The notes beneath the pieces were generated by a model. The model was not told where the DNA came from. It saw nothing but the letters and a program-made list of their open reading frames with translations, and searched no databases. A DNA stretch of 64,000 nucleotides, from positions 14,950 to 78,949 of the IMG/VR virus record IMGVR_UViG_3300022751_000001. The stretch is one strand, 5' to 3'. Of the stretch, positions 15,725 through 58,514 are shown one piece after another. Each line of letters starts with the position of its first letter. The first letter of the stretch is position 1. The position numbers were made by a program, and so were the translations under genes. Source of the stretch: a virus (lineage: Duplodnaviria; Heunggongvirae; Uroviricota; Caudoviricetes).

Positions 15725-16258
15725 CTACGGGTTGGTCTCTTTTTCGTTGTACTGGAAATTAGTGCGAGCGAACTCACCGAATAATTGCATTGCCCATTGG
15801 TCGTAGATGTACGCGGCTTGTATAGGGTCGTCATCTGCCCAGACCCGCTTGATCTTCATACCAGGGATTTGAATGAAGACAGCCCATTTGTTAAGGCGTG
15901 AGTCCCAAGAGACGCCTTTGTAGCCAGAGGTGTTCTGCTTACCGATGGCGACGTTCTGTGCATTTTGCTGTCGAGTAACCTTTCGCAAGTTTCGCTTGCG
16001 GTTGTCGAAGCGGTTGCCGCTGATATGGTCGATCATCTGACTATTCATAATGAAGTTGTGCAGACCGATTTGTTTTTCACCGACTACCGTGATTGCATAC
16101 CCGCTTCTACCAACTAACCAGCGACGCTTTAAAACACGCTCAGCGTCGTCTTCGTCAACGATTGTCTTAGCGCGTACCTTACCGTCTTTGTCTAACAAAA
16201 ACAGGGTGCAAACCCCGTCTTTGATGATATGTGGGTTACCAGTTAACTTTTTGCCCAT
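15725..16258 (-). CDS. HNH homing endonuclease with AP2 DNA-binding domain
   Basis: HNH core IDHISGNRFDNRKRNLRKVTRQQN; AP2 domain GYKGVSWDSRLNKWAVFIQ...AAYIYDQWAMQLFGEFARTNF. Confidence 0.75.
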   Translation of the reverse strand: MGKKLTGNPHIIKDGVCTLFLLDKDGKVRAKTIVDEDDAERVLKRRWLVGRSGYAITVVGEKQIGLHNFIMNSQMIDHISGNRFDNRKRNLRKVTRQQNAQNVAIGKQNTSGYKGVSWDSRLNKWAVFIQIPGMKIKRVWADDDPIQAAYIYDQWAMQLFGEFARTNFQYNEKETNP

Positions 16259-16732: not shown

Positions 16733-16882
16733 TTATTTTCTCCCTAATTTTCGTTTGCGTCGTATTTCAGACTTCGGTTGCATAGCCCAGCGAGCTTTCG
16801 TTCGCTTTGGATCTGACGGCTGAGTTGCTCGTCGTTGCGCACGGTTCTGTGGGCTACTGATGTGTATTTTGTCTTCTACCAT
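16733..16882 (-). CDS. hypothetical small basic protein
   Basis: internal ATG (MVEDKIH...) of the 16733-16978 ORF; TAAATG overlap with the downstream gene. Confidence 0.3.
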   Translation of the reverse strand: MVEDKIHISSPQNRAQRRATQPSDPKRTKARWAMQPKSEIRRKRKLGRK

Positions 16883-16888
16883 ACTTTC

Positions 16889-16897
16889 ATTATACAG
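16889..16897 (-). promoter_or_regulatory. extended -10 promoter (TGnTATAAT) for the minus-strand operon
   Basis: reverse complement reads ctgTATAATg just upstream of the 16882 start. Confidence 0.35.
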
Positions 16898-17204
16898 GAC
16901 AATGGAAAAGTAGCATTGGCACAGGACGCCCTGTATGATATGAATTGGGACGAGAACTAGGAAGTGGTGCAAACCCACGAAGCTATGCTCTTATCGACTT
17001 CTGACACGCGGTTTACGGCCTGGACAGAATGGTATAGCAAGTTGTCGCTGTAACCCTTTGACGTGACAGGTCATTGTACTACTTATAGGGGGTGGTTACA
17101 CTGTTGAAACTGCGAGAGCATGGCTCCGAGAAAGATTCAGCTTACCTATTCTTCAAGACGTTTATGTTCTTGGGGGGTAGGGGGGGCTGTCTCCTCAACT
17201 CAAA

Positions 17205-17237
17205 CAATCACCAAAAAAGATTAGGGTCTTCGCCTAA
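17205..17237 (-). terminator. rho-independent terminator (minus strand)
   Basis: on the minus strand TTAGG-cgaagac-CCTAA then TCTTTTTTGG; stop codon of gene 17221 lies in the 3' arm. Confidence 0.5.
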
Positions 17238-18528
17238 CACGTTCAAGTTGATTACGGTTAGTAACCATACGATACATACGCCAACGTTGAACATTTCGAG
17301 AGGTATTAGCTTTATTAGCTACTTTATGCCAGATATGATATATAGGACCCTCGATTCTTAGCGGTTCACCCGAGACAATTTGTGCCGCTTTATAGAAAAT
17401 GTTATCTTCAGCACCCCAACCAACGCATCGCTGGTCAAATCCATGCACTTGCTCGTAAACATTACGCGGAACAATCACGATTAACGACTGCGTACCGAGC
17501 GGTTCGGTGCGAACGCTTTCGAGTTCTTCTTTTGCAAACTTATATCTGAATATCTGCTTGTCTAGCATATATAACGAGTTGGCTCTATTTACCGACTCAA
17601 CCCGAGTGAACGGTATTACGACTTTTTGCTCTTTAACCGCTAACGCGATACCTTTTTTCAATACGTCTGGATCAATATACGCATCTGAATCGACGAATAT
17701 ACCGACCGACCAGTTACCTGCGGCTTTCGCAGCGATATTCAAGCCTGTACTTCGGTTGAACATTCCTTCGACGTGGTGCCCTTCGTATACTTTGTATAGC
17801 AATTTACTCCAGTAGTTGTCTTTGATATGTCGCCAAATGCGGTCGCGGTGACCGTTATCATTCCTTCGAGCAACCATAATAGGTACTTCAAACTGATTAC
17901 GGTATTCTGCGTATACAGGTAATTTGCTTTCATCGACAAAACGCCAACCGCCCTTACCCTCATCGGGTGCAGTGGTAATGTTTGCGGTGTCTTGGTCAGC
18001 GCAGTAGATTAACTCGCTACTGTTTTTTACGTCTTGAAATGGGTGAGTCGTGAAACCTTCATTGTGAATCCGCATTGATAAGTTCTCGTGTTCGCGACCA
18101 TAGCGACCGAACGCATTGTGCATACCACCGACAATCGGGATAAGTGTCGCATCAAGGTAGAGCATACACCCCCGTGATTTATCGAAAGCATTTACTGTGT
18201 CGGTTTCTGCGATTTTTTTAATCTTCCAGTGGTCGGGTGCATTTTCGAAGTTGTATTGTAGGTGCGGTTCAGGTGAATTAACATACGGTTCCCACCATTT
18301 ATCAGCAATTGGGTAGGTGTCGTCATCAAACAAAAAGATTTGATCGCAACCAGAATCCATGAGGTTCTCGATACCTTGGTTCTTATTTACAGCGATACCC
18401 CAGTAGTCTTTATCGAGCGTGACGACCAGCGTGGAGTTTTTTGGCATCACCTTTTTGAATTGCTTGATGGTATTCTCAAGAACCCTCTTGCGTGAGGGGA
18501 CAGTTGAGATTGCAATTCCTATTTTCAT
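17221..18528 (-). CDS. two-domain glycosyltransferase
   Basis: 435 aa; N-terminal half parallels gene 18525-19244 (MKIGIAISTV...FLFDDDTYP, DxD motif); C-terminal half has FVDSDAYI...GWGAEDN (GT-A fold). Confidence 0.6.
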   Translation of the reverse strand: MKIGIAISTVPSRKRVLENTIKQFKKVMPKNSTLVVTLDKDYWGIAVNKNQGIENLMDSGCDQIFLFDDDTYPIADKWWEPYVNSPEPHLQYNFENAPDHWKIKKIAETDTVNAFDKSRGCMLYLDATLIPIVGGMHNAFGRYGREHENLSMRIHNEGFTTHPFQDVKNSSELIYCADQDTANITTAPDEGKGGWRFVDESKLPVYAEYRNQFEVPIMVARRNDNGHRDRIWRHIKDNYWSKLLYKVYEGHHVEGMFNRSTGLNIAAKAAGNWSVGIFVDSDAYIDPDVLKKGIALAVKEQKVVIPFTRVESVNRANSLYMLDKQIFRYKFAKEELESVRTEPLGTQSLIVIVPRNVYEQVHGFDQRCVGWGAEDNIFYKAAQIVSGEPLRIEGPIYHIWHKVANKANTSRNVQRWRMYRMVTNRNQLERVRRRP

Positions 18529-19244
18529 TTGTAGTCTATGAAGTCTGTGCGACCGCGCAGTTTTATTTTGATTGGTTTGTTTTTAATTATAAACTTTCTT
18601 CGCTCATTTGCCGTGAAAGTGCTTTCAACCGCGTCGAACTCGTCAGAAGAATAGATGTATTTATCAGTGTCGATTGCGTCTTGGTATGCGTGGGTCGTGA
18701 AGCCAGCTGCGTGAATACGGTCGCTCAGTTCTGTGTGTTCGTAGCCACCGTCACCGAATATCGGGTCGAAACCGCCAACCGTTTCAATGACATCGCTCTC
18801 GAAGTAAAGCATACACCCGCGAGTGTGGTTGAACCAGCGAAGGTCGTTATCTTTATCCATACCCTCGAGACCGAATGTGCGGGTCTGGTTTCCCTTGTTA
18901 ACGAAGACGTAAAACAGGTGCGGTTCTTTGTTCTTGATGTATTTGTTTGCCCATGGGCGTTGAAGTGGCCAAGTGTCATCGTCGAATAAGAAAATGTGAT
19001 GAGCACCCCACTCCATTGCAAGCTCGAGACATTTGTTTTTCGCACGAGGGATGCCGAGCTTTTTCTCTGCGTAGTACCACGTTTCATCTTCAAGCACTGG
19101 TTGGGTTTCAGCGACTGGTTCTGTTGAGTTGTCGTCTACCACGAAGATTCTTGCGCCTTTTGGTAAGTACGCGCGTTGCATTGCAAGACCTTTACCGAAC
19201 ACTTCAGTTCGATTACGGGTGGTTATACAGACAGCTATTTTCAC
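18525..19244 (-). CDS. glycosyltransferase (GT-A, DxD)
   Basis: MKIAVCITTRNR...IFVVDDNS...FLFDDDTWP; paralogous to the N-terminal domain of the downstream gene; ATGA overlaps with both neighbours. Confidence 0.6.
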   Translation of the reverse strand: MKIAVCITTRNRTEVFGKGLAMQRAYLPKGARIFVVDDNSTEPVAETQPVLEDETWYYAEKKLGIPRAKNKCLELAMEWGAHHIFLFDDDTWPLQRPWANKYIKNKEPHLFYVFVNKGNQTRTFGLEGMDKDNDLRWFNHTRGCMLYFESDVIETVGGFDPIFGDGGYEHTELSDRIHAAGFTTHAYQDAIDTDKYIYSSDEFDAVESTFTANERRKFIIKNKPIKIKLRGRTDFIDYK

Positions 19245-19900
19245 AGAAGACCCTCCAGATATTGCTTGTACTTGTTGAACTTGACATTGCTCGTAGAAAG
19301 GTAGGCAGTAATGTCTTCGATTTTGATGTTCTTTACATCATCGTAAGGTATCGAACCGAGACCGTCAAGCGATGGGTAGAAGTTGTAGTACAGGCTTTTA
19401 ATTTGCAGGTCAAAATCCGTGTCGATAAGGTTGTTCGTCATATACAACGCTTTCTCTTTTTCAATCACAGCTGGTACGTGGAGTTCGTAGTTACGGGTAC
19501 CGAGGTCGTTCTGCTTCAGGTATACGTCAGTCTTTACGAGTGACTTGCGGTACTGGTCGTCGGTGCGAGCTTTTATTTTGTCGTGAAGCATTGGGTATTT
19601 GCGGTCGTACATTCGGTGCGGCTCAAAAGGTGCGGTGAGGTAGACATCGTCCATCATAAGGATAAACTGGTCGGTTAGCTCGGGTATGCGTACTGCAAGT
19701 GCGAACTTGAGCATTTGGTCAGCGAACTTACCTACGATTGAGCGGTGTAGAATGTGGACTACTTCACCATAAAGCCTTGTTGGGGGCAGATCACCGATAA
19801 CGTAAATAGTGCCAAGGTTGGGGTAGAACTTCTTTAGCAAGCGAATAGAATAGATTAGCTCATCGCTGTTCGTGTGCTTGTAAAGATAGACCGCGTCCAT
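19241..19900 (-). CDS. Stealth-family-like sugar-1-phosphate transferase fragment (CR2-like motif)
   Basis: HTNSDELIYSIRLLKKFYPNLGTIYVIGDLPP resembles the Stealth CR2 consensus (NxDELRYSLRS....PW...IYIVT..Q.P); 219 aa. Confidence 0.45.
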   Translation of the reverse strand: MDAVYLYKHTNSDELIYSIRLLKKFYPNLGTIYVIGDLPPTRLYGEVVHILHRSIVGKFADQMLKFALAVRIPELTDQFILMMDDVYLTAPFEPHRMYDRKYPMLHDKIKARTDDQYRKSLVKTDVYLKQNDLGTRNYELHVPAVIEKEKALYMTNNLIDTDFDLQIKSLYYNFYPSLDGLGSIPYDDVKNIKIEDITAYLSTSNVKFNKYKQYLEGLL

Positions 19901-20157
19901 TACTTCTTCTTAGCTGGTTCGACTGCATCTTCCCGTGTGATGACGTATTTGAACTTAACAAAGTACTTGAGGTTATCACCATCGACGACAGTGTAGCCAC
20001 GCCAAGTGCGGTTGGTCACCTGCACCTTGTAAATATACGGTGGTAGACGGTCACCAGCTAGAAATAGAGCCAGACCAGTCTTTTGTTGCATAACTGACGA
20101 ACGAATGAGAATCGTGTCATCAGCCTTGTAGAAGTATTTGTCAAATAAGGTTTTCAT
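19900..20157 (-). CDS. hypothetical protein
   Basis: 85 aa; start/stop overlaps with neighbours. Confidence 0.45.
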   Translation of the reverse strand: MKTLFDKYFYKADDTILIRSSVMQQKTGLALFLAGDRLPPYIYKVQVTNRTWRGYTVVDGDNLKYFVKFKYVITREDAVEPAKKK

Positions 20158-20522
20158 AGTAAGTTCTTTAGCTCCTCTGCTATATGATTACGTCGTGATT
20201 GCGAGACATTGATGAGTCGCCATGATGAGTCGATTAGTTTGTTGAGACGTGCTACGGTCGCACGGTTCGCTGCACTTTCAAGCCGCACCTTCTGGTTGAC
20301 TTTTGTGTCTGACCAATTGTTGCGAGACAGCTCTTTTACCTTCTCGGCTTCGAACAGAATCATTTCTGACTCGATGTCAGCTACGATTTCTTCTGCGGCT
20401 GAAACGTATTGAGCGAGCTTGTACATATTTTCACTAAGAAGAACAGGGGCGGTAATCGCATCTGGTGAGCGCAATTCCTCGCGAGTCTCTTTGATACCTT
20501 TGATTACGTCCTCTATTTTCAT
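20154..20522 (-). CDS. hypothetical protein
   Basis: 122 aa, helical. Confidence 0.45.
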   Translation of the reverse strand: MKIEDVIKGIKETREELRSPDAITAPVLLSENMYKLAQYVSAAEEIVADIESEMILFEAEKVKELSRNNWSDTKVNQKVRLESAANRATVARLNKLIDSSWRLINVSQSRRNHIAEELKNLL

Positions 20523-20548
20523 CTGGTGCTAATTATACAGGAATATGC

Positions 20549-20578
20549 TTGCAGATACAACGGGGCAAATGGTACAAT
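20549..20578 (+). promoter_or_regulatory. sigma70-like promoter for the HNH gene (TTGCAG-18-TACAAT)
   Basis: ttgcag at 20549-20554, tacaat at 20573-20578. Confidence 0.5.
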
Positions 20579-20600
20579 GCGAACAAAATTAAGGTGCACA

Positions 20601-21002
20601 ATGGCAAAAGTATTATCAACTAACAAATGGAAACTAACCAGACAAAAATGGGTAAAACAAAACCCAGTCACCGAGTTCAGTGAAGAGGGTGATACTGGTT
20701 GGCTGTGTGCTTTTTGTGGTGAACCTGTCTGGAAATACGAGCTGTCTCTCGACCACATTCTTCGAGTTCAGGATTACCCGCAATGCAAGTACGACGTAAG
20801 CAACTTACGCCCTATGCACCAAAGTTGCAACTCAAACCTCGACGCGATTTGGCGAACCGAAAAAGGTCGCACGACATTTGTTCGACGTAAGAAAGCAGAA
20901 CGCTCTCACAAGATTCGCTGTATCAATGAAACTCAAGAATGGTACGAACTAGCGATTAGTACGGGTGCCATTCCATACACTGCCAGCAAAAGTCTTGTGT
21001 AA
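20601..21002 (+). CDS. HNH endonuclease
   Basis: RBS aaggtg; CAFCGEPVWKYELSLDHILRVQDYPQCKYDVSNLRPMHQSCN is an HNH motif; lone plus-strand gene inside a minus-strand block. Confidence 0.7.
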   Translation: MAKVLSTNKWKLTRQKWVKQNPVTEFSEEGDTGWLCAFCGEPVWKYELSLDHILRVQDYPQCKYDVSNLRPMHQSCNSNLDAIWRTEKGRTTFVRRKKAERSHKIRCINETQEWYELAISTGAIPYTASKSLV

Positions 21003-22279: not shown

Positions 22280-22704
22280 TTCTTTTCTTGTCTTTTCTTT
22301 GTGAGTCGTGCCGTGTTGTAAAGGTTCTAATTGGTGGAAGCGTCGGGTATTGCACCCGAGTCCAGCGGTTTAACGATTAAGCGTCTACAAGTTTGTTCTG
22401 TTTAAGGCAGACATCTAGGTGGTGTGCCCACTTTTTATTTTGCGTGGTAGTGAGAAACCACGACAACGACATTTATAGGGTGTATGACGTTTTATACGCT
22501 AATGAAGAACTTGTATAAAACGCACTGCTAGTAAGCAGCTGTCGCAAGAACTGGGCTGGCAACGAATTGCGCAACTGCGTTCTTAACTTTTGAAACGAAT
22601 TTGTTTGCGTTTAAAATGTGATTGTAACTAATCATGTACTTGCAACTCAATTGTTAGGTACTACTGTCGAAATCTATATCGCCCCCGTTACGTCTATTAT
22701 ACAC

Positions 22705-24831: not shown

Positions 24832-25158
24832 TTATAGCTGAATACCATTATCTTTACGGTTGTGGCACCTTCGACACAGCCACTGCAGGTTGCTTTGAAC
24901 ATATCGCAGGTCAGGGCGAACGCTGCGTTTAATAATATGGTCGACATCGGTTGCGGGGTTACCGCAGAACGAACACTTCGCATCGGGGTTATTAGCCACA
25001 AAGATTTTGCGAGCTTCTTGCCATAAGTCATAGTGCTTACCGCGTTGCTTGATTGCTTTACGCGGTTTTGCTTCTACCTCTTTGCGGGGTCGTTGCGAGC
25101 ATTGGAACGAGTAGTGCTTGTCAACCGCTTTGCAGTATTTGCAGACGGTCGCTTTCAC
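24832..25158 (-). CDS. HNH endonuclease
   Basis: CSFCGNPATDVDHIIKRSVRPDLRYVQSNLQWLCRRCHNRKDN; extra Cys pairs at the N-terminus. Confidence 0.7.
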   Translation of the reverse strand: MKATVCKYCKAVDKHYSFQCSQRPRKEVEAKPRKAIKQRGKHYDLWQEARKIFVANNPDAKCSFCGNPATDVDHIIKRSVRPDLRYVQSNLQWLCRRCHNRKDNGIQL

Positions 25159-28841: not shown

Positions 28842-29756
28842 TTATACTTTCTTATGCTCTTCTCGAAGGATAAGAGGTGCAGTGTTACGCCAGTTAATAC
28901 GGTGGTGAATGCGAAACGCGTTATTGTCTTTTTCTTTACCCGCGCCCTTGATCGCAGATGTGTTGTAAAGAACCGAGAACTTTGCACCTGACGGGTGGGT
29001 GATAATTGTGTACGCGGTCTTGGTATAGGTACCGAGCGATTTGTACATCTCAGACATACCGCCAGTGTTTGTTTGGGTAGTCTTCTGGTTGAGTGCGATG
29101 AACGCTGTCGTTAAGAACAAGAACCCTTGGTGTGCGAGTGACGTGTAGGTGTTTACGTCTTCGTTAATACGACCGACAAAGTTGAAACGTCTGTCAGTTG
29201 AGCAAATGAAGCTATTCATCACCTTGCGTCTGAATTGGTCGCTTACCATCTTCGAACCGCCACCACCGATGTAGTCACCAGACTGCGCCATGCAGAGTGA
29301 ATACATCAGGGGAACCGATATGAAGTATTCGAGCATTATGTCAAAGACCTTATCGAGCGTCTGTTCTTCGGGTAGCGGGGATAGCATAAGCGAAGAGTAT
29401 TCGATGTTTTCGTTCATTCGCCACCTGAAACTGTCGTAGTCATCATCAAGCTGGATAAAATACTTATACCCTAGCTTTTCAGCAATATCGAACGAAGCGT
29501 TGCGAGCGTAAAAGATAGTGCGACGTTCACCTGAGTTGTCTACCTCATCAAACCGCTCTGCGATTTCATTCTTACTAAACGTGACGATTTTGTCATCACC
29601 CCATACTCTACGGTACTCGGGTAATGTTGCGTCTTCATCGTCCACAACGAGCTTCCAATCACCTGTATAACCGTGACGCTTGAGCGTGTTTACGGTAACT
29701 TGGTTATTCGGTCGCCCGTGCGTCAATATCAGTGCTACGAAGTTTTTGTTTTCCAT
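28842..29756 (-). CDS. hypothetical protein, possible GT-A-like nucleotide-sugar transferase
   Basis: 304 aa; ALILTHGRP...VVDDED...QLDDDYD (DxD-like motifs); weak. Confidence 0.35.
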   Translation of the reverse strand: MENKNFVALILTHGRPNNQVTVNTLKRHGYTGDWKLVVDDEDATLPEYRRVWGDDKIVTFSKNEIAERFDEVDNSGERRTIFYARNASFDIAEKLGYKYFIQLDDDYDSFRWRMNENIEYSSLMLSPLPEEQTLDKVFDIMLEYFISVPLMYSLCMAQSGDYIGGGGSKMVSDQFRRKVMNSFICSTDRRFNFVGRINEDVNTYTSLAHQGFLFLTTAFIALNQKTTQTNTGGMSEMYKSLGTYTKTAYTIITHPSGAKFSVLYNTSAIKGAGKEKDNNAFRIHHRINWRNTAPLILREEHKKV

Positions 29757-40146: not shown

Positions 40147-40221
40147 TGGCACTCGCGCTAGGACTCGAACCTAGATTGCTGGAGCCAAAATCCAGTGTCC
40201 TACCAGTTAGACGACATGAGT
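40147..40221 (-). tRNA. tRNA-Gln(UUG)
   Basis: cloverleaf on the reverse complement; anticodon stem CTGGA/TCCAG, loop TTTTGGC; GTTCGAGTC T-loop; CCA encoded. Confidence 0.7.
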
Positions 40222-40226
40222 ATACT

Positions 40227-40302
40227 TGGGGTAAAAGATGAGAATTGAACTCACATTATCGGCACCACAAGCCGACGTTCTAACCATTGAACTACTTTCA
40301 CC
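40227..40302 (-). tRNA. tRNA-His(GUG)
   Basis: extra 5' G(-1), anticodon loop TTGTGGT, discriminator C, CCA encoded. Confidence 0.7.
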
Positions 40303-40307
40303 ACGCT

Positions 40308-40371
40308 TGGCTCCGCACACGGGTTGCAACGCCTTGGTGCAAACGTTATACACTTCAGACACGTGTACGGA
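40308..40371 (-). pseudogene. 64-nt CCA-terminated tRNA-like element (degenerate tRNA?)
   Basis: 7-bp acceptor-like helix TCCGTAC/GTGCGGA, discriminator G, CCA; too short for a cloverleaf; contains GTTGCAAC...CCCGTG as in the elements at 40907 and 43165. Confidence 0.3.
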
Positions 40372-40374
40372 GTT

Positions 40375-40458
40375 TGGCGGAAGATTGGATAATCGAAAAC
40401 CATGCTTTCACACTCATCGCTTAGCGGGCGAGACCTGATCCTATCAGGTTAATCTTCC
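40375..40458 (-). tRNA. tRNA-Ser(GCU)-like, atypical D-arm (possible pseudogene)
   Basis: perfect acceptor GGAAGAT/ATCTTCC, discriminator G, CCA, T-loop TTCGATT, anticodon loop CCGCTAA with C33, long variable arm; D region is a 7-bp hairpin with a 3-nt loop. Confidence 0.4.
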
Positions 40459-40461
40459 ATG

Positions 40462-40547
<86 letters not shown>

Positions 40548-40553
40548 TAATTG

Positions 40554-40641
40554 TGGTCGGTCTAGCTAGATTTGAACTAGCACGAGGTTTTAATCTCCGC
40601 AGGGTTTAAGCCTGCTATGTCTACCGTTTCATCATAGACCG
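40554..40641 (-). tRNA. tRNA-Leu(UAA)
   Basis: type-II; anticodon stem GCAGG/CCTGC, loop CTTAAAC; CCA. Confidence 0.75.
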
Positions 40642-40646
40642 TAATT

Positions 40647-40732
40647 TGGTACCGAAGGTGGGACTCGAACCCACAACGCTTTTCAGCACTGGTTCCTAAG
40701 ACCAGCGTGTCTACCAATTCCACCACTTCGGC
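40647..40732 (-). tRNA. tRNA-Leu(UAG)
   Basis: type-II; 5' GCCGAAGTGGTGGAATTGGTAGACAC; anticodon loop CTTAGGA; CCA. Confidence 0.75.
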
Positions 40733-40737
40733 ATATT

Positions 40738-40822
40738 TGGTGTGCTTACTCAGACTTGAACTGAGATGAGATTAACTCGGTAGCTTTTGAAACTACTGCG
40801 TATACCGTTCCGCCATAAGCAC
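40738..40822 (-). tRNA. tRNA-Leu(CAA)
   Basis: type-II; anticodon loop TTCAAAA; T-arm CTCAG-TTCAAGT-CTGAG; CCA. Confidence 0.7.
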
Positions 40823-40827
40823 ATATT

Positions 40828-40901
40828 TGGAGAAACGTATCAGATTCGCACTGATGTAAACGGGTTTGCAATCCGCTGCGTAGCTGCTCCGCCAACGCTT
40901 C
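40828..40901 (-). tRNA. tRNA-Cys(GCA)
   Basis: anticodon arm GCGGATTGCAAACCCGT (cf. E. coli Cys GCGGATTGCAAATCCGT); discriminator U; CCA. Confidence 0.7.
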
Positions 40902-40906
40902 ATATT

Positions 40907-41022
40907 TGGCACCCCCGCAAACCTTTAGGGTGAGCTAACAAATGCTTTTTATAACTAGTATGTTGCACTTGCTTGCCTGCGTATCTACTCAGGTAATTAA
41001 GCTGAGCACTACAAACGGGGGT
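40907..41022 (-). ncRNA. 116-nt CCA-terminated tRNA-like element (function unknown)
   Basis: perfect 7-bp terminal helix ACCCCCG/CGGGGGT, discriminator G, CCA, enclosing ~100 nt of AT-rich sequence without a canonical T-loop; 3' region ...CCTAAAGG...CGGGGGTGCCA resembles the element at 43165. Confidence 0.3.
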
Positions 41023-41027
41023 ATATT

Positions 41028-41098
41028 TGGTGAAGTAGGACGGAATCGAACCATCGCCTTTTGATTTACAGTCAATCGGGTGCCCTGCACGCTACAAC
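41028..41098 (-). pseudogene. tRNA-Tyr(GUA)-like, probably degenerate
   Basis: anticodon loop CTGTAAA and T-arm GATGG-TTCGATT-CCGTC are good, but the acceptor has two T-T mismatches, the D-arm is tiny and the variable arm is short for Tyr. Confidence 0.3.
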
Positions 41099-41103
41099 AT
41101 ATT

Positions 41104-41180
41104 TGGTGGTTTCGGTCTGAATTGAACAGACGACCCCCTGTTCTTCAAACAGGTGCTCTAACCAACTGAGCTACAAAACC
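41104..41180 (-). tRNA. tRNA-Phe(GAA)
   Basis: GCTCAGTTGGTTAGAGC D-arm; anticodon loop TTGAAGA; CCA. Confidence 0.75.
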
Positions 41181-41193
41181 AAAAGTTACTTGT

Positions 41194-41274
41194 TCGGGGA
41201 GCCAGGAGTTGAACCTGGGCATCGGGTCTATATTACTCTGCAGCCCGCAGCACTAACGTTATGCTTACTCCCCG
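41194..41274 (-). pseudogene. atypical tRNA-like gene: no encoded CCA, 15-17-nt anticodon loop
   Basis: perfect acceptor CGGGGAG/CTCCCCG and T-arm CCAGG-TTCAACT-CCTGG, but the anticodon stem CGGG/CCCG encloses CTGCAGAGTAATATAGA; 3' end is ...A-ACA instead of CCA. Confidence 0.3.
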
Positions 41275-41277
41275 TTA

Positions 41278-41352
41278 TGGTCAGTCCAGTAGGGTTCGAA
41301 CCTACGGTCTCATGCTCCCAAAGCACGCGTGATACCACTTCACTATAGACTG
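41278..41352 (-). tRNA. tRNA-Pro(UGG)
   Basis: anticodon loop TTTGGGA; T-arm GTAGG-TTCGAAC-CCTAC; CCA. Confidence 0.7.
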
Positions 41353-41355
41353 ATT

Positions 41356-41430
41356 TGGCTCTAGATATTGGAATCGAACCAATCGCCTTCTCCTTAACAG
41401 GGAGCTGCCCTACCGATGGGCCGATCTAGA
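41356..41430 (-). tRNA. tRNA-Asn(GUU)
   Basis: perfect acceptor TCTAGAT/ATCTAGA; anticodon loop CTGTTAA; CCA. Confidence 0.7.
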
Positions 41431-41437
41431 ATATATT

Positions 41438-41512
41438 TGGCGCGACCAGCGAGAATTGAACTCGCGACTATACCGTGACAGGGTACTGTGATAACCACTT
41501 CACCATGATCGC
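41438..41512 (-). tRNA. tRNA-Asp(GUC)
   Basis: anticodon loop CTGTCAC; T-loop TCAATTC; CCA. Confidence 0.7.
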
Positions 41513-41517
41513 ATATT

Positions 41518-41600
41518 TGGCACACGTACACAGATTCGAACTGCTTAGCTTTCGCACTGGTTTTGGAGACCAGTTCCCATCGCCACTAGGGAGTACATGT
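41518..41600 (-). tRNA. tRNA-Trp(CCA) with 11-nt variable region
   Basis: acceptor ACATGTA/TACGTGT (one G-U); anticodon stem CTGGT/ACCAG, loop CTCCAAA; extra GCGAAAGC mini-hairpin in the variable region; 83 nt. Confidence 0.5.
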
Positions 41601-41985
41601 ATATTGGGTGCTGGGTTTTGTTGATTTGTGCCCAGCGTCCCGACTAGCGATATGCAATTGCATAAAGCTATCAAATCGGTCAGACCTTTCATCGGTAGTC
41701 TGAATGAGCCTTATACTTGAGACTCGCTTATCTTTCTCAAGCAGGGTGCGCTAAACGCTCCAAGGGTCGGCAGACCCGTCGTACAACCATTCATTTCGGG
41801 GGAGGGGAGTGTATGCCCCAGCTTAATCTATCGCTCTTTGCAATAGACCCCCTGATGTAACTCGACCGCTGCGCTACCCATCACGGTTTACAGTACCTAC
41901 CAGCTTTGGGAGCTGGGGTGTTAGGGTCACTTACAGCCCTATCTGCTGACTACCGTGCCAAAGCCTCGTCCGTCGGTTAATTTGT

Positions 41986-42019
41986 TAAAAAAAGACACCT
42001 ACTTGTGGGTAGATGTCTC
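41986..42019 (-). terminator. rho-independent terminator (minus strand) inside the tRNA region
   Basis: minus-strand GAGACATCTACC-cacaa-GTAGGTGTC then TTTTTTT. Confidence 0.45.
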
Positions 42020-42140
42020 TCGTTGTTTGTTTTCAAAATTCTTCTTATGAAGAGAACGACAAGACACCTACACTAAATTGATCCGGGCAATTTGACCAGA
42101 GCTGTGATAGTAGTGAGTGACTATATAATGTCTTCATAAT
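42020..42140 (-). ncRNA. candidate small RNA (~130 nt) bounded by promoter and terminator
   Basis: minus-strand promoter ttgtat-18-tgg-tataat (plus 42144-42173) upstream and the 41986-42019 terminator downstream; longest ORF inside is 21 codons. Confidence 0.3.
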
Positions 42141-42143
42141 TTC

Positions 42144-42173
42144 ATTATACCATAATAATAAATGGCAATACAA
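42144..42173 (-). promoter_or_regulatory. putative promoter with extended -10 (minus strand)
   Basis: reverse complement ttgtattgccatttattattatggtataat. Confidence 0.35.
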
Positions 42174-42188
42174 TCTTTTTTATAAATT

Positions 42189-42263
42189 TGGTCACCCATG
42201 GGAGAGTTGAACTCCCGTTGCATGATTGAAAATCATGTGTCCTAACCGTTAGACGAATGGGCG
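42189..42263 (-). tRNA. tRNA-Glu(UUC)
   Basis: anticodon stem CATGA/TCATG, loop TTTTCAA; T-arm GGGAG-TTCAACT-CTCCC; CCA. Confidence 0.7.
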
Positions 42264-42268
42264 ATATG

Positions 42269-42345
42269 TGGTGAAACCGATAGGGATCGAACCTATGACA
42301 CCCTGATTAAGAGTCAGGTGCTCTAACCAGCTGAGCTACGGTTCC
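42269..42345 (-). tRNA. tRNA-Lys(CUU)
   Basis: GCTCAGCTGGTTAGAGC D-arm; anticodon loop CTCTTAA; CCA. Confidence 0.7.
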
Positions 42346-42442
42346 ATATCTTGAAAAGGTGCTACGAGAAGTTTCGGCTCATACGTCCATGCAATTCCTG
42401 CCTGGTTTGACCTCGTAATCATACTTGCTACCAATATGTATT

Positions 42443-42518
42443 TGGTGGAGTTGCAGAGAATCGAACTCTGGTGAAGACGTTGCAAACGTCCCATAATAAA
42501 CCGTTATATGACAACCCC
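42443..42518 (-). tRNA. tRNA-Ala(UGC)
   Basis: acceptor GGGGTTG/CAACTCC; anticodon loop TTTGCAA; T-arm CAGAG-TTCGATT-CTCTG; CCA. Confidence 0.65.
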
Positions 42519-42526
42519 GAATTGTT

Positions 42527-42602
42527 TGGTAGTTCCCGCTGGACTTGAACCAGCACCAGCTTCGTTAGAACCGAAGTGCCCTATCCATTAGACCAGAGAA
42601 CC
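42527..42602 (-). tRNA. tRNA-Arg(UCU)
   Basis: anticodon stem CTTCG/CGAAG, loop GTTCTAA; T-loop TTCAAGT; CCA. Confidence 0.65.
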
Positions 42603-42830
42603 TTATATTTCTGCTTTGAGGTACTTATCGAGCAGATCATTGATTTGAGTAATGTGAACCATACCAGCTTGTTTCACAGCTATTTCACCAAAGTGTCTGC
42701 GCAGTACTACGAAACCTTGTTCGAGTGCTTGCGTTTCTTCTTCAATGATGTCGCGAGTTAGGTCATGCACTAGACTTTCAGCTTGTCGCTTGACTAAGTT
42801 TGGGTCTGGGTCTTTGCGGTATGCTTCCAT
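42603..42830 (-). CDS. hypothetical protein nested inside the tRNA array
   Basis: 75 aa from the internal ATG (MEAYRKDPDPNLVKRQAESLVHDL...); the longer ORF start would overlap tRNA-Gly; stop abuts the 5' end of tRNA-Arg. Confidence 0.4.
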   Translation of the reverse strand: MEAYRKDPDPNLVKRQAESLVHDLTRDIIEEETQALEQGFVVLRRHFGEIAVKQAGMVHITQINDLLDKYLKAEI

Positions 42831-42846
42831 ACTCTTATTATACGTA

Positions 42847-42921
42847 TGGTGCGGGTACACAGAATCGAACTGTGATCCCCTGATTGGAAGTCAGGTATAT
42901 TAGCCGTTATACTATACCCGC
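42847..42921 (-). tRNA. tRNA-Gly(UCC)
   Basis: perfect acceptor GCGGGTA/TACCCGC; anticodon loop CTTCCAA; T-arm CACAG-TTCGATT-CTGTG; CCA. Confidence 0.7.
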
Positions 42922-42927
42922 AAATGT

Positions 42928-43005
42928 TGGAGCCCCTCACGGAGTCGAACCGTTCCTCGTACCTACCACGGTACGCGTGCTAACCAACGTTACACTAACT
43001 GGGGC
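42928..43005 (-). pseudogene. tRNA-Thr(GGU)-like with irregular anticodon loop and acceptor (possible pseudogene)
   Basis: anticodon region CGTAC-CGTGGTAG-GTACG allows only a 6- or 8-nt loop around GGT; T-loop TTCGACT present; acceptor pairing imperfect; CCA position ambiguous. Confidence 0.3.
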
Positions 43006-43008
43006 GTA

Positions 43009-43082
43009 TGGGGCCGCCACTCGGTACTGCCCCGAGGTCGATAGTTTACAAAACTACTACTCTACTTTTGAGCTATGGCGGC
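43009..43082 (-). tRNA. tRNA-Thr(UGU) with non-canonical T-loop
   Basis: perfect acceptor GCCGCCA/TGGCGGC, discriminator C, CCA; anticodon loop TTTGTAA; T-arm TCGGG-GCAGTAC-CCGAG lacks the T54-psi55-C56 consensus. Confidence 0.5.
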
Positions 43083-43085
43083 ACT

Positions 43086-43161
43086 TGGTAGTCCCAGAAG
43101 GAATTGCACCCTCGACACCTTGTTCCGAAGACAAGTGCTCTATCTGCTGAGCTATAGGACT
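43086..43161 (-). tRNA. tRNA-Arg(UCG)
   Basis: acceptor AGTCCTA/TGGGACT; D-arm GCTCAGCAGATAGAGC; anticodon loop CTTCGGA; CCA. Confidence 0.6.
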
Positions 43162-43164
43162 TTA

Positions 43165-43268
43165 TGGTGCACGGGGGCAGCTTTAGGCTACCTCTATTCT
43201 AATAACGCTTCAGTGCACCTCTACGCTTTCGATTCTCGAGCCACGTTGCAACGATGTGCTCTCCGTAC
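43165..43268 (-). ncRNA. 104-nt CCA-terminated tRNA-like element (function unknown)
   Basis: terminal helix GTACGGA/CCCGTGC, discriminator A, CCA; no T-loop; interior contains CGTTGCAACG and ...GCCTAAAGCTGCCCCCGTGCACCA, echoing the elements at 40308 and 40907. Confidence 0.3.
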
Positions 43269-43273
43269 AAATT

Positions 43274-43358
43274 TGGTTGCGGGGACGGGATTCGAACCCG
43301 TGTATCTTGCGACAAAGGGATATGAGCCCTCCGAGAATGACCGCTTCTCAACCCCGCT
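43274..43358 (-). tRNA. type-II (long variable arm) tRNA with CAU anticodon and A1-A72 mismatch
   Basis: acceptor AGCGGGG/CCCCGCA with A1 opposite A72; 3-bp D-stem GAG/CTC; anticodon stem GAGGG/CCCTT, loop CTCATAT (anticodon CAU); variable arm TGTC-GCAA-GATA hairpin; T-arm ACGGG-TTCGAAT-CCCGT; CCA. Confidence 0.55.
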
Positions 43359-43363
43359 ATATA

Positions 43364-43439
43364 TGGTCGTCTCTGTAGGACTCGAACCTACAACCTTCTG
43401 TGTGTAAAACAGATGCTCTAGCCATTGAGCTAAGAGACG
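43364..43439 (-). tRNA. tRNA-Val(UAC)
   Basis: acceptor CGTCTCT/AGAGACG; D-arm GCTCAATGGCTAGAGC; anticodon loop TTTACAC; CCA. Confidence 0.7.
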
Positions 43440-43451
43440 ATAATTTGTTAA

Positions 43452-43525
43452 TGGTCGGTGTAGGTGGTTCTGCCCCACCGTATGCAGAATATAAGTCTGC
43501 TGTTCTACTATTGAACTATACACCA
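43452..43525 (-). tRNA. tRNA with UAU anticodon (Ile-UAU?) and non-canonical T-loop
   Basis: acceptor TGGTGTA/TACACCG; D-arm GTTCAATAGTAGAAC; anticodon stem GCAGA/TCTGC, loop CTTATAT; T-arm GGTGG-GGCAGAA-CCACC lacks the TTC consensus; CCA. Confidence 0.45.
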
Positions 43526-43532
43526 GAATACT

Positions 43533-43609
43533 TGGTTGGACGAGTAGGATTTGAACCTACGATCTCCTGAATATCAGTCAAGTGCTTTAACCAGCTAAGC
43601 TACCGTCCA
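43533..43609 (-). tRNA. tRNA-Ile(GAU)
   Basis: acceptor TGGACGG/TCGTCCA; anticodon stem CTTGA/TCAGG, loop CTGATAT; T-arm GTAGG-TTCAAAT-CCTAC; CCA. Confidence 0.6.
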
Positions 43610-43616
43610 TTATTTG

Positions 43617-43691
43617 TGGTGGGCTCGGTTGGAATCGAACCAACGTGGTACAGATTAAAAGTCTGCTGCTCAACCACTGAGCCACGAACCC
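43617..43691 (-). tRNA. tRNA-Lys(UUU)
   Basis: acceptor GGGTTCG/CGAGCCC; D-arm GCTCAGTGGTTGAGC; anticodon loop CTTTTAA; T-arm GTTGG-TTCGATT-CCAAC; CCA. Confidence 0.7.
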
Positions 43692-48107: not shown

Positions 48108-48254
48108 ATGACCGAACGCGAATACGTTTACGAAGTAGGTTTAACCCCTGACGACAAAGCACGCTTGCAACGTATGCTAGGTGTTAGTACACTTAGTCTT
48201 GAAGATTATGAACACGCTAAAAACGTGATTAACGATATAGAGGTTGAAGAGTGA
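48108..48254 (+). CDS. hypothetical small protein
   Basis: 48 aa (MTEREYVYEVGLTPDDKARLQRMLGVSTLSLEDYEHAKNVINDIEVEE); GTGA overlap with the next gene. Confidence 0.3.
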   Translation: MTEREYVYEVGLTPDDKARLQRMLGVSTLSLEDYEHAKNVINDIEVEE

Positions 48255-48868
48255 AAGTTTTAGCAGTCGGTGACACTCACCAAAAGCAGTGGATTTTAGA
48301 CAAGGTTGAAAAAATCGCTGGTAACTACGACAAAGTAGTTCTTTTAGGTGACTACCTCGACAACTGGGGTTCTAGCGGGTTCGACCGACTTGATATGATT
48401 CTGCGGGTGCAACGATTAGTGCAAACTAACCCGAACGTCATCGCGCTATGCGGTAACCACGACCTATGCTATTTCAACAAGAAGTACAGCGGTATGTATT
48501 CAGGGTGGGACGCTCACGCACAAATGATGTTTGACGCTGAACCGCAACTCACTGACTTTATGCGAAAGCTACCAGAAACCTACGAGATTGACGGGGTTAC
48601 CTACTCGCACGCTGGTCTGACTGATGACTGGACACCAAACCGTCACCCACTCGCAGATGATGGGCACATGTGGGTACGACCAGGGCAAGGCTACGTCTAC
48701 AAACCAAACCAAGTGTTCGGTCACACCCCAAGCAAGACTTGCTGGGAAGTACAACAAAACGTATGGTGTGTTGACACATTCTCGCAATACCCAGACCTTA
48801 CCCACTTTGGTGACTGTTCTGTGCTTGAAATCGTAGACGGTAAGACGTACACTGTTACTCAGTTATGA
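48251..48868 (+). CDS. calcineurin-like metallophosphatase (lambda-PPase-like Ser/Thr phosphatase)
   Basis: GTG start; VLAVGDTHQK (GDxHG), VLLGDYLDNWG (GDxxDRG-like), CGNHD (GNHE). Confidence 0.7.
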   Translation: MKVLAVGDTHQKQWILDKVEKIAGNYDKVVLLGDYLDNWGSSGFDRLDMILRVQRLVQTNPNVIALCGNHDLCYFNKKYSGMYSGWDAHAQMMFDAEPQLTDFMRKLPETYEIDGVTYSHAGLTDDWTPNRHPLADDGHMWVRPGQGYVYKPNQVFGHTPSKTCWEVQQNVWCVDTFSQYPDLTHFGDCSVLEIVDGKTYTVTQL

Positions 48869-49620
48869 GAATCTTAATCACTGGTTCTGAAGGGTTTATC
48901 GGTCGTCACGTTGTAGCGACCGCTCGCAATCGAGGGCACACGGTTGTTTGTGTTGACCACTTGCTAGAAAATGCTCGCTATATTAACCAGTATGACGTTG
49001 ATAGTTTTGACGCGGTCATTCACTTAGCGGCATATATTGATATTGGTCAATCTTTCAAAGACCCTTGGCTATATGTTTCGAACAACCTGTTGCAAATGCA
49101 AACGCTCGAGAATGCACGACGCGTCGTATTCGCTTCTAGCGCGGCTGTATACGGTAAGTTCTCACCCTACGGTTACACAAAGCGTCTCGGTGAATCACTG
49201 CTACCGAAGAACAGTATCTCGCTACGTCTATTTAACCCGTTCGGGCCTGGCGAAAACCACAAACCAGAGAACCACATTGTACCGCTACTCGCAGGTAACT
49301 CAAATGAGGGCAACGTAACCACTCTTTACCACGATGGTGAGCAGATTCGTGACTTTATTCACGTTAGTGATGTTGCTCTCGCTTTTGTGATGGCTGCAGA
49401 ATCTGATGCGACTGGTGCGTACGACCTTTGTAGCACACCGCTGTCTATCAAGAAAGTTGCTGAGCTTATGAAAGTACCGTTTGAATTGTCTAAAAGGTCT
49501 CGCGACGCTGGTGATACTATGAGCTTAGTTGGTGACCCGTTACCACTTGAAAAAGCAATCGGGTTCACACCTCAAAAAGATGTCAAAGAAATGCTAAAAA
49601 ACTGGCGATATTGGTATTGA
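48865..49620 (+). CDS. NAD-dependent epimerase/dehydratase-family protein (short form)
   Basis: MRILITGSEGFIGRHV Rossmann motif; catalytic YGYTKRLGE (YxxxK); 251 aa, shorter than typical UDP-sugar epimerases. Confidence 0.65.
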   Translation: MRILITGSEGFIGRHVVATARNRGHTVVCVDHLLENARYINQYDVDSFDAVIHLAAYIDIGQSFKDPWLYVSNNLLQMQTLENARRVVFASSAAVYGKFSPYGYTKRLGESLLPKNSISLRLFNPFGPGENHKPENHIVPLLAGNSNEGNVTTLYHDGEQIRDFIHVSDVALAFVMAAESDATGAYDLCSTPLSIKKVAELMKVPFELSKRSRDAGDTMSLVGDPLPLEKAIGFTPQKDVKEMLKNWRYWY

Positions 49621-49669
49621 TTTTGTCGCGGCTTCTAGCTTATAATTAAGCCTGTAAAGGGGCTATAAG

Positions 49670-49876
49670 ATGTATAAAGCAAAAACAAAGTTCAAGAGCA
49701 AATCACATAACGCACGAGTGGTCAAAGAGGGCGAGCTGTTCGAGCTAGAAGCAATCTACCACAACAATTATGATATTGGTCGTTCAAAGGTAGAACTAAA
49801 CTCCGCAGACCGACCATTCTTTCTATCAATCACTCACGACGAGTTCAACGAATTTTTCGAAGAAGTTGACTTGTAG
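49670..49876 (+). CDS. hypothetical protein
   Basis: 68 aa. Confidence 0.4.
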   Translation: MYKAKTKFKSKSHNARVVKEGELFELEAIYHNNYDIGRSKVELNSADRPFFLSITHDEFNEFFEEVDL

Positions 49877-49929
49877 CCGATTGATGTTCATACTTAGGTA
49901 TGAAAGAGATAAAACATAAAAGGATCAAC

Positions 49930-56182: not shown

Positions 56183-56956
56183 TTAGAATAGCCCTTGTAC
56201 GAACTTCAGAATACCACCGATAAGACCTGTATCTTCTTCTGGCGCTGGGGCTGGAGTAGGATTTGTGGTGTTATTTGTAGTCGTGTTGTTCGTAGTTGAG
56301 TTGTTTGTTACAGGTGCAGAGGTCGTATTTCGAGAGGTATTGTTATTCGTTGTGCTTGGAGCTGGGGTTGTTGCACCCGCTGATTCAAGCTGGCGAATCT
56401 TTTCTTCGAGAGCCTCTACTTGTTGTCGCACAGTTGCAGGGTCAAGTGATGCTTCTTCGACTGTAAATGTAACAGTTCGGTTTCGCTCACAGTGATCTCG
56501 CCATAGAATTACGTCAGTGTAACATACGTCGAAGTTGAGGTAACAGTCGCGTGGTAGGCCATCGAATTGCGTTACGTCAGGGATAACGATTGCGTTATCT
56601 CGAGGTGGGTTCACCCCGTTAGGTCGGGTCGCAGGGATCGAGTCGAGCTGGATTTCACGTGCGTCACGCCCACCAGTTGCTTCACAGATAATAGTACGAA
56701 TACTTGTACCTGTAGCGTTAATCAGCTTAGTCGACTGACTTTGGAAGACAAGTGTGTCACCTGGATTAAATACAGGCTTGTCACCGTTATAGTTTTTAAC
56801 ATCTGTAATCTCTATTTTCCAGTCAACCAAAACATCAATCGGTTTGTTCATCAGATAGATGAAGCCCCCAAGAATGATTAAGATAAATGATAGGTTAATT
56901 AGTACAAGGGGACGGTGTGTGACCCAAGCCCACCAGCCGATTAGTTTTAGTTTCAT
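56183..56956 (-). CDS. membrane-anchored protein with Thr/Asn-rich low-complexity tail
   Basis: N-terminal signal anchor (LVLINLSFILIILGGFIYL); C-terminal PAPSTTNNNTSRNTTSAPVTNNSTTNNTTTNNTTNPTPAPAP. Confidence 0.45.
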   Translation of the reverse strand: MKLKLIGWWAWVTHRPLVLINLSFILIILGGFIYLMNKPIDVLVDWKIEITDVKNYNGDKPVFNPGDTLVFQSQSTKLINATGTSIRTIICEATGGRDAREIQLDSIPATRPNGVNPPRDNAIVIPDVTQFDGLPRDCYLNFDVCYTDVILWRDHCERNRTVTFTVEEASLDPATVRQQVEALEEKIRQLESAGATTPAPSTTNNNTSRNTTSAPVTNNSTTNNTTTNNTTNPTPAPAPEEDTGLIGGILKFVQGLF

Positions 56957-58426: not shown

Positions 58427-58514
58427 ATATACTTATTATAATACAGGAAGACCAGTTATGCTATTTCGAGCGTAGAATGCGTCCTGCCGCTTCTCCTGCT
58501 GTCACAGACCCTAT

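Follow-up and report, generated by a model that had tools for sequence, protein, structure and literature searches.

A modular phage cassette joining a minimal Stealth-like protein to tandem GT-A glycosyltransferases, with virion proteins as candidate acceptors

To our knowledge, mycobacteriophages are the one group in which glycosylation of the virion has so far been demonstrated. In them it protects particles against antibodies, a point of interest for phage therapy, and the glycan is reportedly carried at the C-terminus of the capsid and tail-tube subunits, a finding ascribed to Freeman et al. in 2023. Described here is a stretch of 64,000 nucleotides of tailed-phage DNA (Caudoviricetes; IMG/VR record IMGVR_UViG_3300022751_000001, positions 14,950 to 78,949), referred to throughout as the window, with a sugar-transfer cassette of three minus-strand genes. 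The first encodes a predicted minimal Stealth-like hexose-1-phosphate transferase of 219 residues (19241–19900, ATG start), the second a single-domain GT-A glycosyltransferase (GT) of 239 residues (18525–19244, GTG start), and the third a predicted bifunctional GT of 435 residues with two GT-A domains (17221–18528, ATG start). Read from sequence, the cassette would be a late-expressed, modular virion glycosylation unit that includes a phosphoglycosyl step and acts on the phage’s own capsid and tail proteins, a reading to which we assign a probability of about one half. Virion glycosylation itself is already known; the new element is the uncharacterised and widespread family of the 219-residue protein, termed mini-Stealth below.

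The closest described systems are the Che8-type cassettes. Che8-type GTs are reported to glycosylate capsid proteins, and their cassettes are placed in Cluster F Cheoctovirus as well as in Corndog and Myrna (Freeman et al. 2023, Cell Host Microbe 31:1216, as cited in PMC11256854, PMC12363180, PMC13445384). The gp110-type GT (PHROG 854) has been called essential for glycosylation of the Che8 capsid (PMC12363180). The 239-residue protein is homologous to the N-terminal domains of BobaPhett gp104 (E 3e-43) and ECP1 gp22 (E 1e-45); taken with the N-terminal half of the 435-residue protein, matches to this domain in Cheoctovirus phages and ECP1 range from E 1e-34 to 1e-45. The N-terminal half of the 435-residue protein matches the same domain of BobaPhett gp104 (E 5e-34), so that the PHROG 1579 domain occurs twice in the cassette, and its C-terminal domain matches Phrappuccino gp143/gp144 (E 5e-40). 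In ECP1, a Nesterenkonia prophage, Eponine and genomes of the Che8 type, the terminase has a pair of homologous GT genes just upstream of it. The ~480-residue GTs of BobaPhett and of the E. coli phage ECP1 are full-length homologues of each other (E 1e-133), as are their ~200-residue partners, which points to transfer of such cassettes between phages of different phyla. The possibility that the “glucosyltransferase” accompanying the GT in Che8-like and ECP1 cassettes corresponds to the 219-residue protein was rejected, as the two share no similarity.

The Stealth family is defined by features that include a CR1 motif, IDVVYTF or similar, and a CR4 tetrapeptide, CLND or CIND; CR2 is a region of ~100 residues in which CpsY carries E305 and an N-D-D motif (N322, D324) with the Mg-binding aspartate, and CR3 carries an essential phosphate-binding arginine, R419 of CpsY (PMC10668966). 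An earlier note on this DNA, made without database searches, had placed a CR2 signature at the N-terminus of the 219-residue protein. Pfam Stealth_CR2 does align with residues 9–101 (E 4.7e-8), but its score of 33.6 bits stays under the gathering score of 39.4. The likeness reaches beyond the N-terminus and spans the entire protein. A phmmer search relates it to the Drosophila N-acetylglucosamine (GlcNAc)-1-phosphotransferase 7dxi (E 3.5e-4), and a profile of 12 mini-Stealth sequences aligns residues 12–154 with zebrafish GNPTAB, H-x-P motif included. For the AlphaFold model (predicted local distance difference test, pLDDT, 91.3), the best 13 Foldseek matches in the PDB are all Stealth enzymes, namely human, zebrafish and fly GNPTAB and Mycobacterium tuberculosis CpsY (E 7e-9 to 5e-7, TM-score 0.53–0.61 on the query), and retaining GT6 and GT8 enzymes rank only below them. 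As judged by sequence, profile and predicted structure, the protein groups with GlcNAc-1-phosphotransferase and CpsY.

Across 12 mini-Stealth homologues, D2, V4, Y5, Y7, D84, D85, R112, H141 and P143 are invariant. The protein begins MDAVYLY, a CR1-like start that Pfam CR1 does not detect; Eponine gp6 has MDVIYPV. The probable Mg-binding aspartates of CR2 are D84 and D85, the equivalent of CpsY N322, which contacts GlcNAc in CpsY, is a methionine (asparagine in the distant relatives P0009–P0011), and the segment equivalent to the one bearing E305 is ~6 residues shorter. H141-x-P143 aligns with the “aHmP” of zebrafish GNPTAB, with no match to Pfam CR3, and the invariant R112, which lies in a loop between helices of the model, is only a candidate counterpart of CpsY R419. 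A C[LI]ND motif is absent from the protein, which has no cysteine and no Pfam CR4 match; its conserved C-terminal motif is LSTSNVKF. Three Stealth spacer segments are all missing as well. Because CR4 and the spacers are lacking and the N322 equivalent is a methionine, the protein is termed Stealth-like here and not a canonical member.

The GT-A assignments of the earlier note held throughout, as did the adjacency and overlapping starts and stops of the three genes. The 435-residue protein matches PHROG 1579/2456, “glycosyltransferase”, over residues 2–190 (E 5e-50) and PHROG 1721, “galactosyl transferase”, over residues 244–428. In Pfam its C-terminal half scores 40.2 bits with Glyco_transf_7C and 25.7 bits with Glycos_transf_2, over the respective cutoffs of 23 and 23.3. 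The motifs DDD (68–70) and DSD (280–282) are invariant in an alignment of 36 full-length homologues. By Foldseek, the proteins closest to the AlphaFold model (pLDDT 93.5) are enzymes that also contain a pair of GT-A domains (K4 chondroitin polymerase, LARGE1, COLGALT1), with beta4GalT1/7 matching a single domain. The C-terminal domain is thus assigned, with the model in support, to GT2/GT7-like GT-A enzymes, with the fold and a DxD motif both present. With these two PHROG families, the N-terminal half and the 239-residue protein together span E 1e-42 to 1e-63. The 239-residue protein (FLFDDDTWP; PHROG 1579, E 5.9e-63; PHROG 2456, E 1.3e-52, “glycosyltransferase”) proved to be the paralogue of the N-terminal domain that had been claimed, as residues 1–202 align with residues 1–179 of the larger protein at 34.5% identity (E 9e-33). 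Of the shared N-terminal motif, position 5 needs correction: the smaller protein starts MKIAVCITT, with V and not I at that place. It also bears a faint similarity to TAGT and PHROG 842. The ~35 full-length homologues of the 435-residue protein are all in phage or prophage contexts, next to methyltransferases, an APH-like kinase, the ~200-residue partner and the terminase, and the closest homologues of the cassette genes are phage, not bacterial, genes.

In the relatives of the window phage, four proteins of head and tail share an ending in an acidic residue and serine: the capsid ends ..SSSES, the tail tube ..TTVDS, and two connectors ..PEES and ..NIES. The capsid (L012:3979–6264) is a 761-residue fusion of protease, scaffold and capsid with a long acidic linker. 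A [D/E]-Ser ending as a genome-wide mark was rejected, since only 3 of 120 window ORFs (open reading frames) carry it and, where the protein is not of the virion, its orthologues do not keep it; the signal is confined to proteins of the head and tail. Among isolate phages (L019, L024, L023, L034, L042, L043, L044), a Gly-Ser ending goes with Che8-type GTs or mini-Stealth. The phages with Che8-type GTs that were compared (BobaPhett, DaWorst, ECP1 and the Nesterenkonia prophage) have Gly-Ser ends on both capsid and tail tube. The major capsid protein of Eponine ends ..AGSGS, that of Gaia ..SSGS with a tail tube ending ..VVGS, and BrutonGaster has a Gly-Ser ending too. Orthologous capsids of Cluster K (80–85% identical), from phages without Che8-type GTs or mini-Stealth, end ..EDTP, ..DDGE or ..APAA. 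A Gly-Ser ending may serve as a simple predictor of glycosylated virion proteins.

The cassette lies in one minus-strand run that comprises, in order, a TAGT gene, a terS-like gene, TerL, the cassette and the tail fibres, which by gene content is a late structural operon. Successive cassette genes share four nucleotides (GTGA and ATGA), and the 85-residue gene upstream shares one nucleotide with the Stealth start (TAATG); such overlaps suggest translational coupling. That gene and a 122-residue one (19900–20522, minus) are coupled by their starts and stops to the Stealth gene, and in all relatives they stand directly upstream of it (conservation seen in L004, L006, L008 and L015). Pfam, PHROG and NCBIfam hold no match for either, and whether they are members of the system is uncertain. 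A scan for promoters and terminators was uninformative, with promoter-like sites rarer than in shuffled sequences.

Comparison with relatives indicates that the cassette has a fixed and a variable part. Stealth and one GT-A gene form a core present in all relatives, with a PHROG 1579-type GT-A domain directly after the Stealth gene in every one. Blastn similarity to the contigs L004, L014 and L015 (79–92% identity) stops at 19265–19277 of the window and resumes at 17227, sharp breakpoints that mark the clean replacement of a module. From these breakpoints and the gene content of relatives, the exchangeable module (17228–19265) corresponds to the 239- and 435-residue genes. At this site the closest relatives have a 464-residue GT and an S-adenosylmethionine (SAM) methyltransferase, another relative has an FkbM methyltransferase, a 312-residue protein and a SAM-synthetase-like protein, and a further one a Gly_transf_sug GT with an IspD/MobA-like nucleotidyltransferase. 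What varies is thus a set of enzymes of glycan metabolism, which comprises methyltransferases of the FkbM and RfbT-like types, a GT32-like GT and the IspD/MobA-like nucleotidyltransferase. Relatives keep Stealth and one GT-A while swapping downstream GTs, sugar O-methyltransferases, the SAM-synthetase-like protein and the nucleotidyltransferase, so that the glycan differs between close relatives. This suggests diversification of a glycan by module swaps between near-identical genomes, as in bacterial serotype loci. The window also has four HNH-type endonuclease genes (15725–16258, 20526–21002, 24832–25158 and 59788–60156), of which one includes an AP2 domain. They flank the terminase region as well as both clusters of GTs, and module exchange at 17227 and 19270 might be driven by homing endonucleases. 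Directly downstream of the cassette, 16733–17220 is a stretch of ~490 nucleotides without a convincing gene, ~89% conserved in relatives, which holds the C-rich tract CCCCCCCTACCCCCC and has no match in Rfam.

Beyond these relatives, mini-Stealth proteins are widespread. Close homologues of the 219-residue protein number only 11 in 5.8 billion proteins, all in phage contigs of ~78–86 kb with the same gene order. With a cutoff of E<=1e-3, a profile search returned 3,444 cluster representatives, and with one of E<=1e-10 it returned 1,514; most have 204–260 residues. In some proteins the domain shares a chain with a GT2, Glyco_transf_7C, GT4 or Gly_transf_sug domain; together with the same GT-A type next to Stealth in all relatives, these fusions confirm, at the level of sequence, that Stealth and GT are functional partners. 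Among viral structures, the best matches are two ~230-residue proteins and “Stealth proteins” of Megaviridae. Mini-Stealth corresponds to PHROG 7999, of unknown function, and 53 actinophage isolates carry a copy, all annotated as hypothetical; no paper on Stealth-like proteins in bacteriophages was found in the literature. In the Mycobacterium phage Eponine, mini-Stealth (gp6, as in Fionnbharth) is the only recognisable sugar transferase of the whole genome. In Gaia (gp170) a methyltransferase comes after it, and the 91% of the genome examined holds no other GT. In Microbacterium phage Cece and Gordonia phage BrutonGaster, the gene has no structural neighbours.

The genome to which the cassette belongs is siphovirus-like, ~85 kb long with 46% GC, and the window is a circular permutation of it, as computed by arithmetic from relatives; the ~21 kb outside the window, head genes included, were reconstructed from close relatives, as an exact look-up of its proteins did not retrieve the window’s own contig. 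By profile, window genes include a tape measure, tail fibres, TerL, RecT, SSB, an exonuclease, a CHAP protein and an Amidase_2+G5 endolysin, along with 22 transfer RNAs (tRNAs) and one transfer-messenger RNA (tmRNA); no integrase was found in the window, and NCBIfam gave nothing over its cutoffs. The closest TerL proteins, ~30% identical, belong to Bacteroidota phages, and megablast of 3.2 kb and of 25 kb against 50,697 phage isolate records found no nucleotide-level relative. The tmRNA gene (22332–22686, minus) is full length by Rfam RF00023 (72.1 bits, gathering score 47, E 1e-27) and shares the strand of the cassette, ~2.4 kb upstream of which it lies; it was missed by ARAGORN. The tRNA cluster (40147–43691, minus) covers most amino acids, and several mechanically called ORFs there are artefacts of tRNA sequence.

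The earlier note had left three targets open, namely DNA, virion proteins and the host surface. Were DNA the target, a TAGT enzyme, the Stealth-like protein and the GTs would together decorate a hydroxylated base with a (phospho)glycan as a defence against restriction. The gene at 28842–29756 (minus), described before as GT-like, encodes a 304-residue GT-A protein that is a clear member of Pfam TAGT (PF20691; 113 bits, cutoff 27.5; PHROG 842, E 6e-60); it stands immediately upstream of the terminase genes, every relative keeps it, and it probably belongs to the same sugar toolkit. TAGT is the family of the T2/T6 beta-glucosyl-hydroxymethylcytosine-alpha-glucosyltransferase (PMC13216743, PMC13390438). 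The TAGT-like trace in the 239-residue GT, the position of the BrutonGaster mini-Stealth gene among replication genes, and modular diversification, which also suits an arms race with restriction systems, all fit this account. Against it stands the search for nucleotide-modifying enzymes that the earlier note had recommended. Every window ORF of 60 residues or more was scanned with Pfam and PHROG, as were the larger ORFs of the missing ~21 kb (~18 kb of it read in relatives). This amounts to ~97% of the genome; the other ~3%, outside the profile scans, holds small ORFs of at most 152 residues. Within this scope there was no thymidylate-synthase-like dCMP or dUMP hydroxymethylase, TET/JBP enzyme, DNA methyltransferase (C5 included) or 5-hydroxymethyldeoxyuridine (5-hmdU) kinase, and no other base-modifying enzyme, DNA polymerase or alpha- or beta-GT. 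We know of no hydroxyl in canonical DNA that a GT or Stealth enzyme could use as acceptor, and with hydroxylation enzymes lacking too, glycosylation of DNA is disfavoured. Solitary TAGT homologues without an alpha- or beta-GT, of unknown substrate, are common, being present in 288 of 753 phages (PMC13216743). The accessory enzymes of the relatives are moreover typical of polysaccharides, and the genes sit in late, not replication, modules; DNA hypermodification is accordingly judged improbable.

Remodelling of the host envelope, in which sugar-phosphate side chains on a lipid- or wall-linked glycopolymer (teichoic acid, cell-wall polysaccharide or capsule) mask the receptor and block superinfection or keep particles from sticking to debris, is unlikely. 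In its favour, those bacterial Stealth enzymes that have been characterised act in the synthesis or modification of polysaccharides with sugar phosphates (CpsY, PMC10668966; capsule polymerases, PMC5974469). Among the cassette partners of relatives are a Caps_synth/Gly_transf_sug GT, an RfbT-like methyltransferase and the IspD/MobA-like nucleotidyltransferase, and the endolysin and CHAP protein fit a Gram-positive host rich in such polymers. CDP (cytidine diphosphate)-ribitol, for comparison with the nucleotidyltransferase, is made by the TarI family. However, the cassette sequences include no membrane protein, flippase, polyprenol-phosphate transferase or predicted membrane anchor, and its place in a late structural operon, in a window with 22 tRNAs and no integrase, does not suit a lysogenic-conversion module. 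Its closest homologues come from phages and not from bacteria, and this account would not explain why it accompanies capsid and tail proteins with a terminal serine. A last option, the least probable in our estimate, is another acceptor, which could be a host protein modified during takeover, some small molecule, or an oligosaccharide-phosphate polymer that is free and escapes at lysis. Enzymes with GT-A and Stealth folds act on many acceptors and sequences do not fix which, and the mini-Stealth genes of Cece and BrutonGaster stand apart from structural genes; yet positive evidence is lacking, and operon position and homology to virion cassettes would go unaccounted for. Modification of virion proteins is favoured over these accounts on the strength of the Che8-type homology, the late-operon position, the Ser-terminated capsid and tail proteins, and the co-occurrence of mini-Stealth with Gly-Ser ends in actinophages.

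Several observations weigh against virion glycosylation even so. A homologue of the gp110-type GT was not found among window ORFs (phmmer, E<=1, with BobaPhett gp107, ECP1 gp23 and Phrappuccino gp154 as queries), and the GTs of the second cluster described below have no PHROG 854 match. The capsid and tail-tube sequences are those of relatives (tape measure 76–83% identical), the phage’s own genes lying outside the window. The Gly-Ser correlation comes from few lineages and is confounded by phylogeny. Terminal serine had to be rejected as a cassette-specific trait: serine is the last residue in 91 of 98 capsid homologues (P0132–P0229, with identities as low as 37%), 75 of which end in Val-Ser. 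Most of those 91 are not matched by any of the 11 Stealth homologues found, so that this ending is common to the capsid lineage. Some non-virion proteins also end in [D/E]-Ser, without conservation. The TAGT-family gene is conserved and the characterised members of its family act on DNA, while in BrutonGaster the mini-Stealth gene sits with replication genes. Donor, acceptor and phosphodiester product are, finally, all deduced from sequence.

If the cassette does modify virion proteins, its chemistry can be sketched from fold and motif conservation. Mini-Stealth would move hexose-1-phosphate from a uridine diphosphate (UDP)-sugar to a hydroxyl, with release of uridine monophosphate (UMP). Donors would be nucleotide sugars of the host, which the GalE-like epimerase of the phage may supplement. 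The most likely acceptor would be a C-terminal or nearly C-terminal serine in the capsid, tail-tube and connector proteins, in which case the Stealth step is initiation; alternatively, it may act on a sugar of the growing chain. The 239-residue GT-A and the two domains of the 435-residue protein, all with DxD motifs, could add up to three more sugars, in an order and with linkages that are likewise conjectural, and recurrence of the Stealth step would yield an oligosaccharide-phosphate repeat. A stronger version, in which mini-Stealth initiates protein phosphoglycosylation on the C-terminal serines of capsid, tail tube and connectors and the GT-As extend it, possibly in cycles, to a teichoic-acid-like coat of the virion, is doubtful and offered only tentatively.

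Other sugar genes bring the window to eight transferase domains and one epimerase, which bears out the unusually large toolkit noticed earlier. The second GT cluster (57281–59791, minus) is real as well; located directly downstream of the tape-measure gene, it has three GT genes, encoding GT2-like (59219–59791), Glyco_transf_17-like (58515–59237) and GT-B Glycos_transf_1 (57281–58426; PHROG 3408, E 1.5e-63) proteins on the same strand. These come from a Pfam scan of concatenated ORFs, in which “Serglycin” matches are artefacts of the added Gly-Ser linkers. The cluster is preceded by the HNH gene at 59788–60156 and followed by a membrane protein (56183–56956) with an Asn/Thr-rich, low-complexity C-terminal tract (..TTNNNTSRNTTSAPVTNNSTTNNTTTNNTTNPTP..), which might be a glycosylation substrate. 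The epimerase (48865–49620, plus) was also correctly recognised: it is a 251-residue short-chain nicotinamide adenine dinucleotide (NAD) epimerase/dehydratase (Pfam Epimerase, 119.9 bits; PHROG 540), nearest to GalE, with an NCBIfam GalE score of 96.5 bits that is far under the cutoff, and its sequence makes it a possible supplier of nucleotide sugar. It stands with a metallophosphatase and a polynucleotide kinase (PHROG 505, E 2e-81) at 48251–50862 (plus), where kinase and phosphatase together look like an RNA-repair module, perhaps without any link to the metabolism of sugars.

The locus suggests that virion glycosylation extends well beyond actinophages and may use an alternative chemistry, Stealth-type sugar-phosphate transfer. 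Phosphoglycosylation would, if the proposal is true, be a modification of virions previously undescribed in phages, with mini-Stealth as the sole responsible enzyme in some actinophages, such as Eponine and Gaia. A large phage family, PHROG 7999, gains a testable function, and structural proteins that end in Gly-Ser or Asp/Glu-Ser are offered as predicted substrates. A 219-residue Stealth core without spacers would also be the smallest known in the family that includes human GlcNAc-1-phosphotransferase, and useful for mechanistic work.

Compared with known systems, the locus combines familiar parts in a different arrangement. Relative to the Stealth family (GNPTAB, CpsY and the Neisseria capsule polymerases), mini-Stealth has the same fold, and its CR1-like MDAVYLY, its aspartate pair and its H-x-P align with CR1, CR2 and CR3. 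It differs in size (219 residues against at least 320 for the CpsY catalytic core), in the lack of spacers and CR4, in its sub-threshold Pfam score and in the methionine at the N322 position, and it is cytoplasmic, phage-encoded and stand-alone. The 435-residue protein has the tandem GT-A architecture of K4 chondroitin polymerase, LARGE1, COLGALT1 and mimivirus R699, from which it differs in being much smaller and only 8–12% identical. In bifunctional capsule polymerases, a Stealth- or TagF-like phosphotransferase and a GT likewise work on one glycan (PMC5974469), a combination seen here in coupled genes and elsewhere in single-chain fusions; those polymerases build lipid-anchored capsules in Gram-negative pathogens, whereas the phage proteins are soluble, encoded in an operon of virion genes and known as yet from sequence. 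As in T2/T6 DNA glycosylation, a TAGT member is present (28842–29756) and the cassette GT-A domains are faintly related to it, but no hydroxymethylcytosine or hydroxymethyluracil pathway, alpha- or beta-GT or TET was found in the ~97% of the genome examined. The Che8-type cassettes come closest. In both, phage GT-A genes adjoin the terminase and late genes, the GTs are homologous to the N-terminal domain of the ~480-residue GT while the C-terminal halves differ, capsid and tail tube end in serine, and accessory methyltransferases occur (here in relatives). The present cassette departs from them in its terminal motif, [D/E]-Ser and not Gly-Ser, and in that a Stealth-like phosphotransferase, instead of a gp110-type GT, stands at its head.

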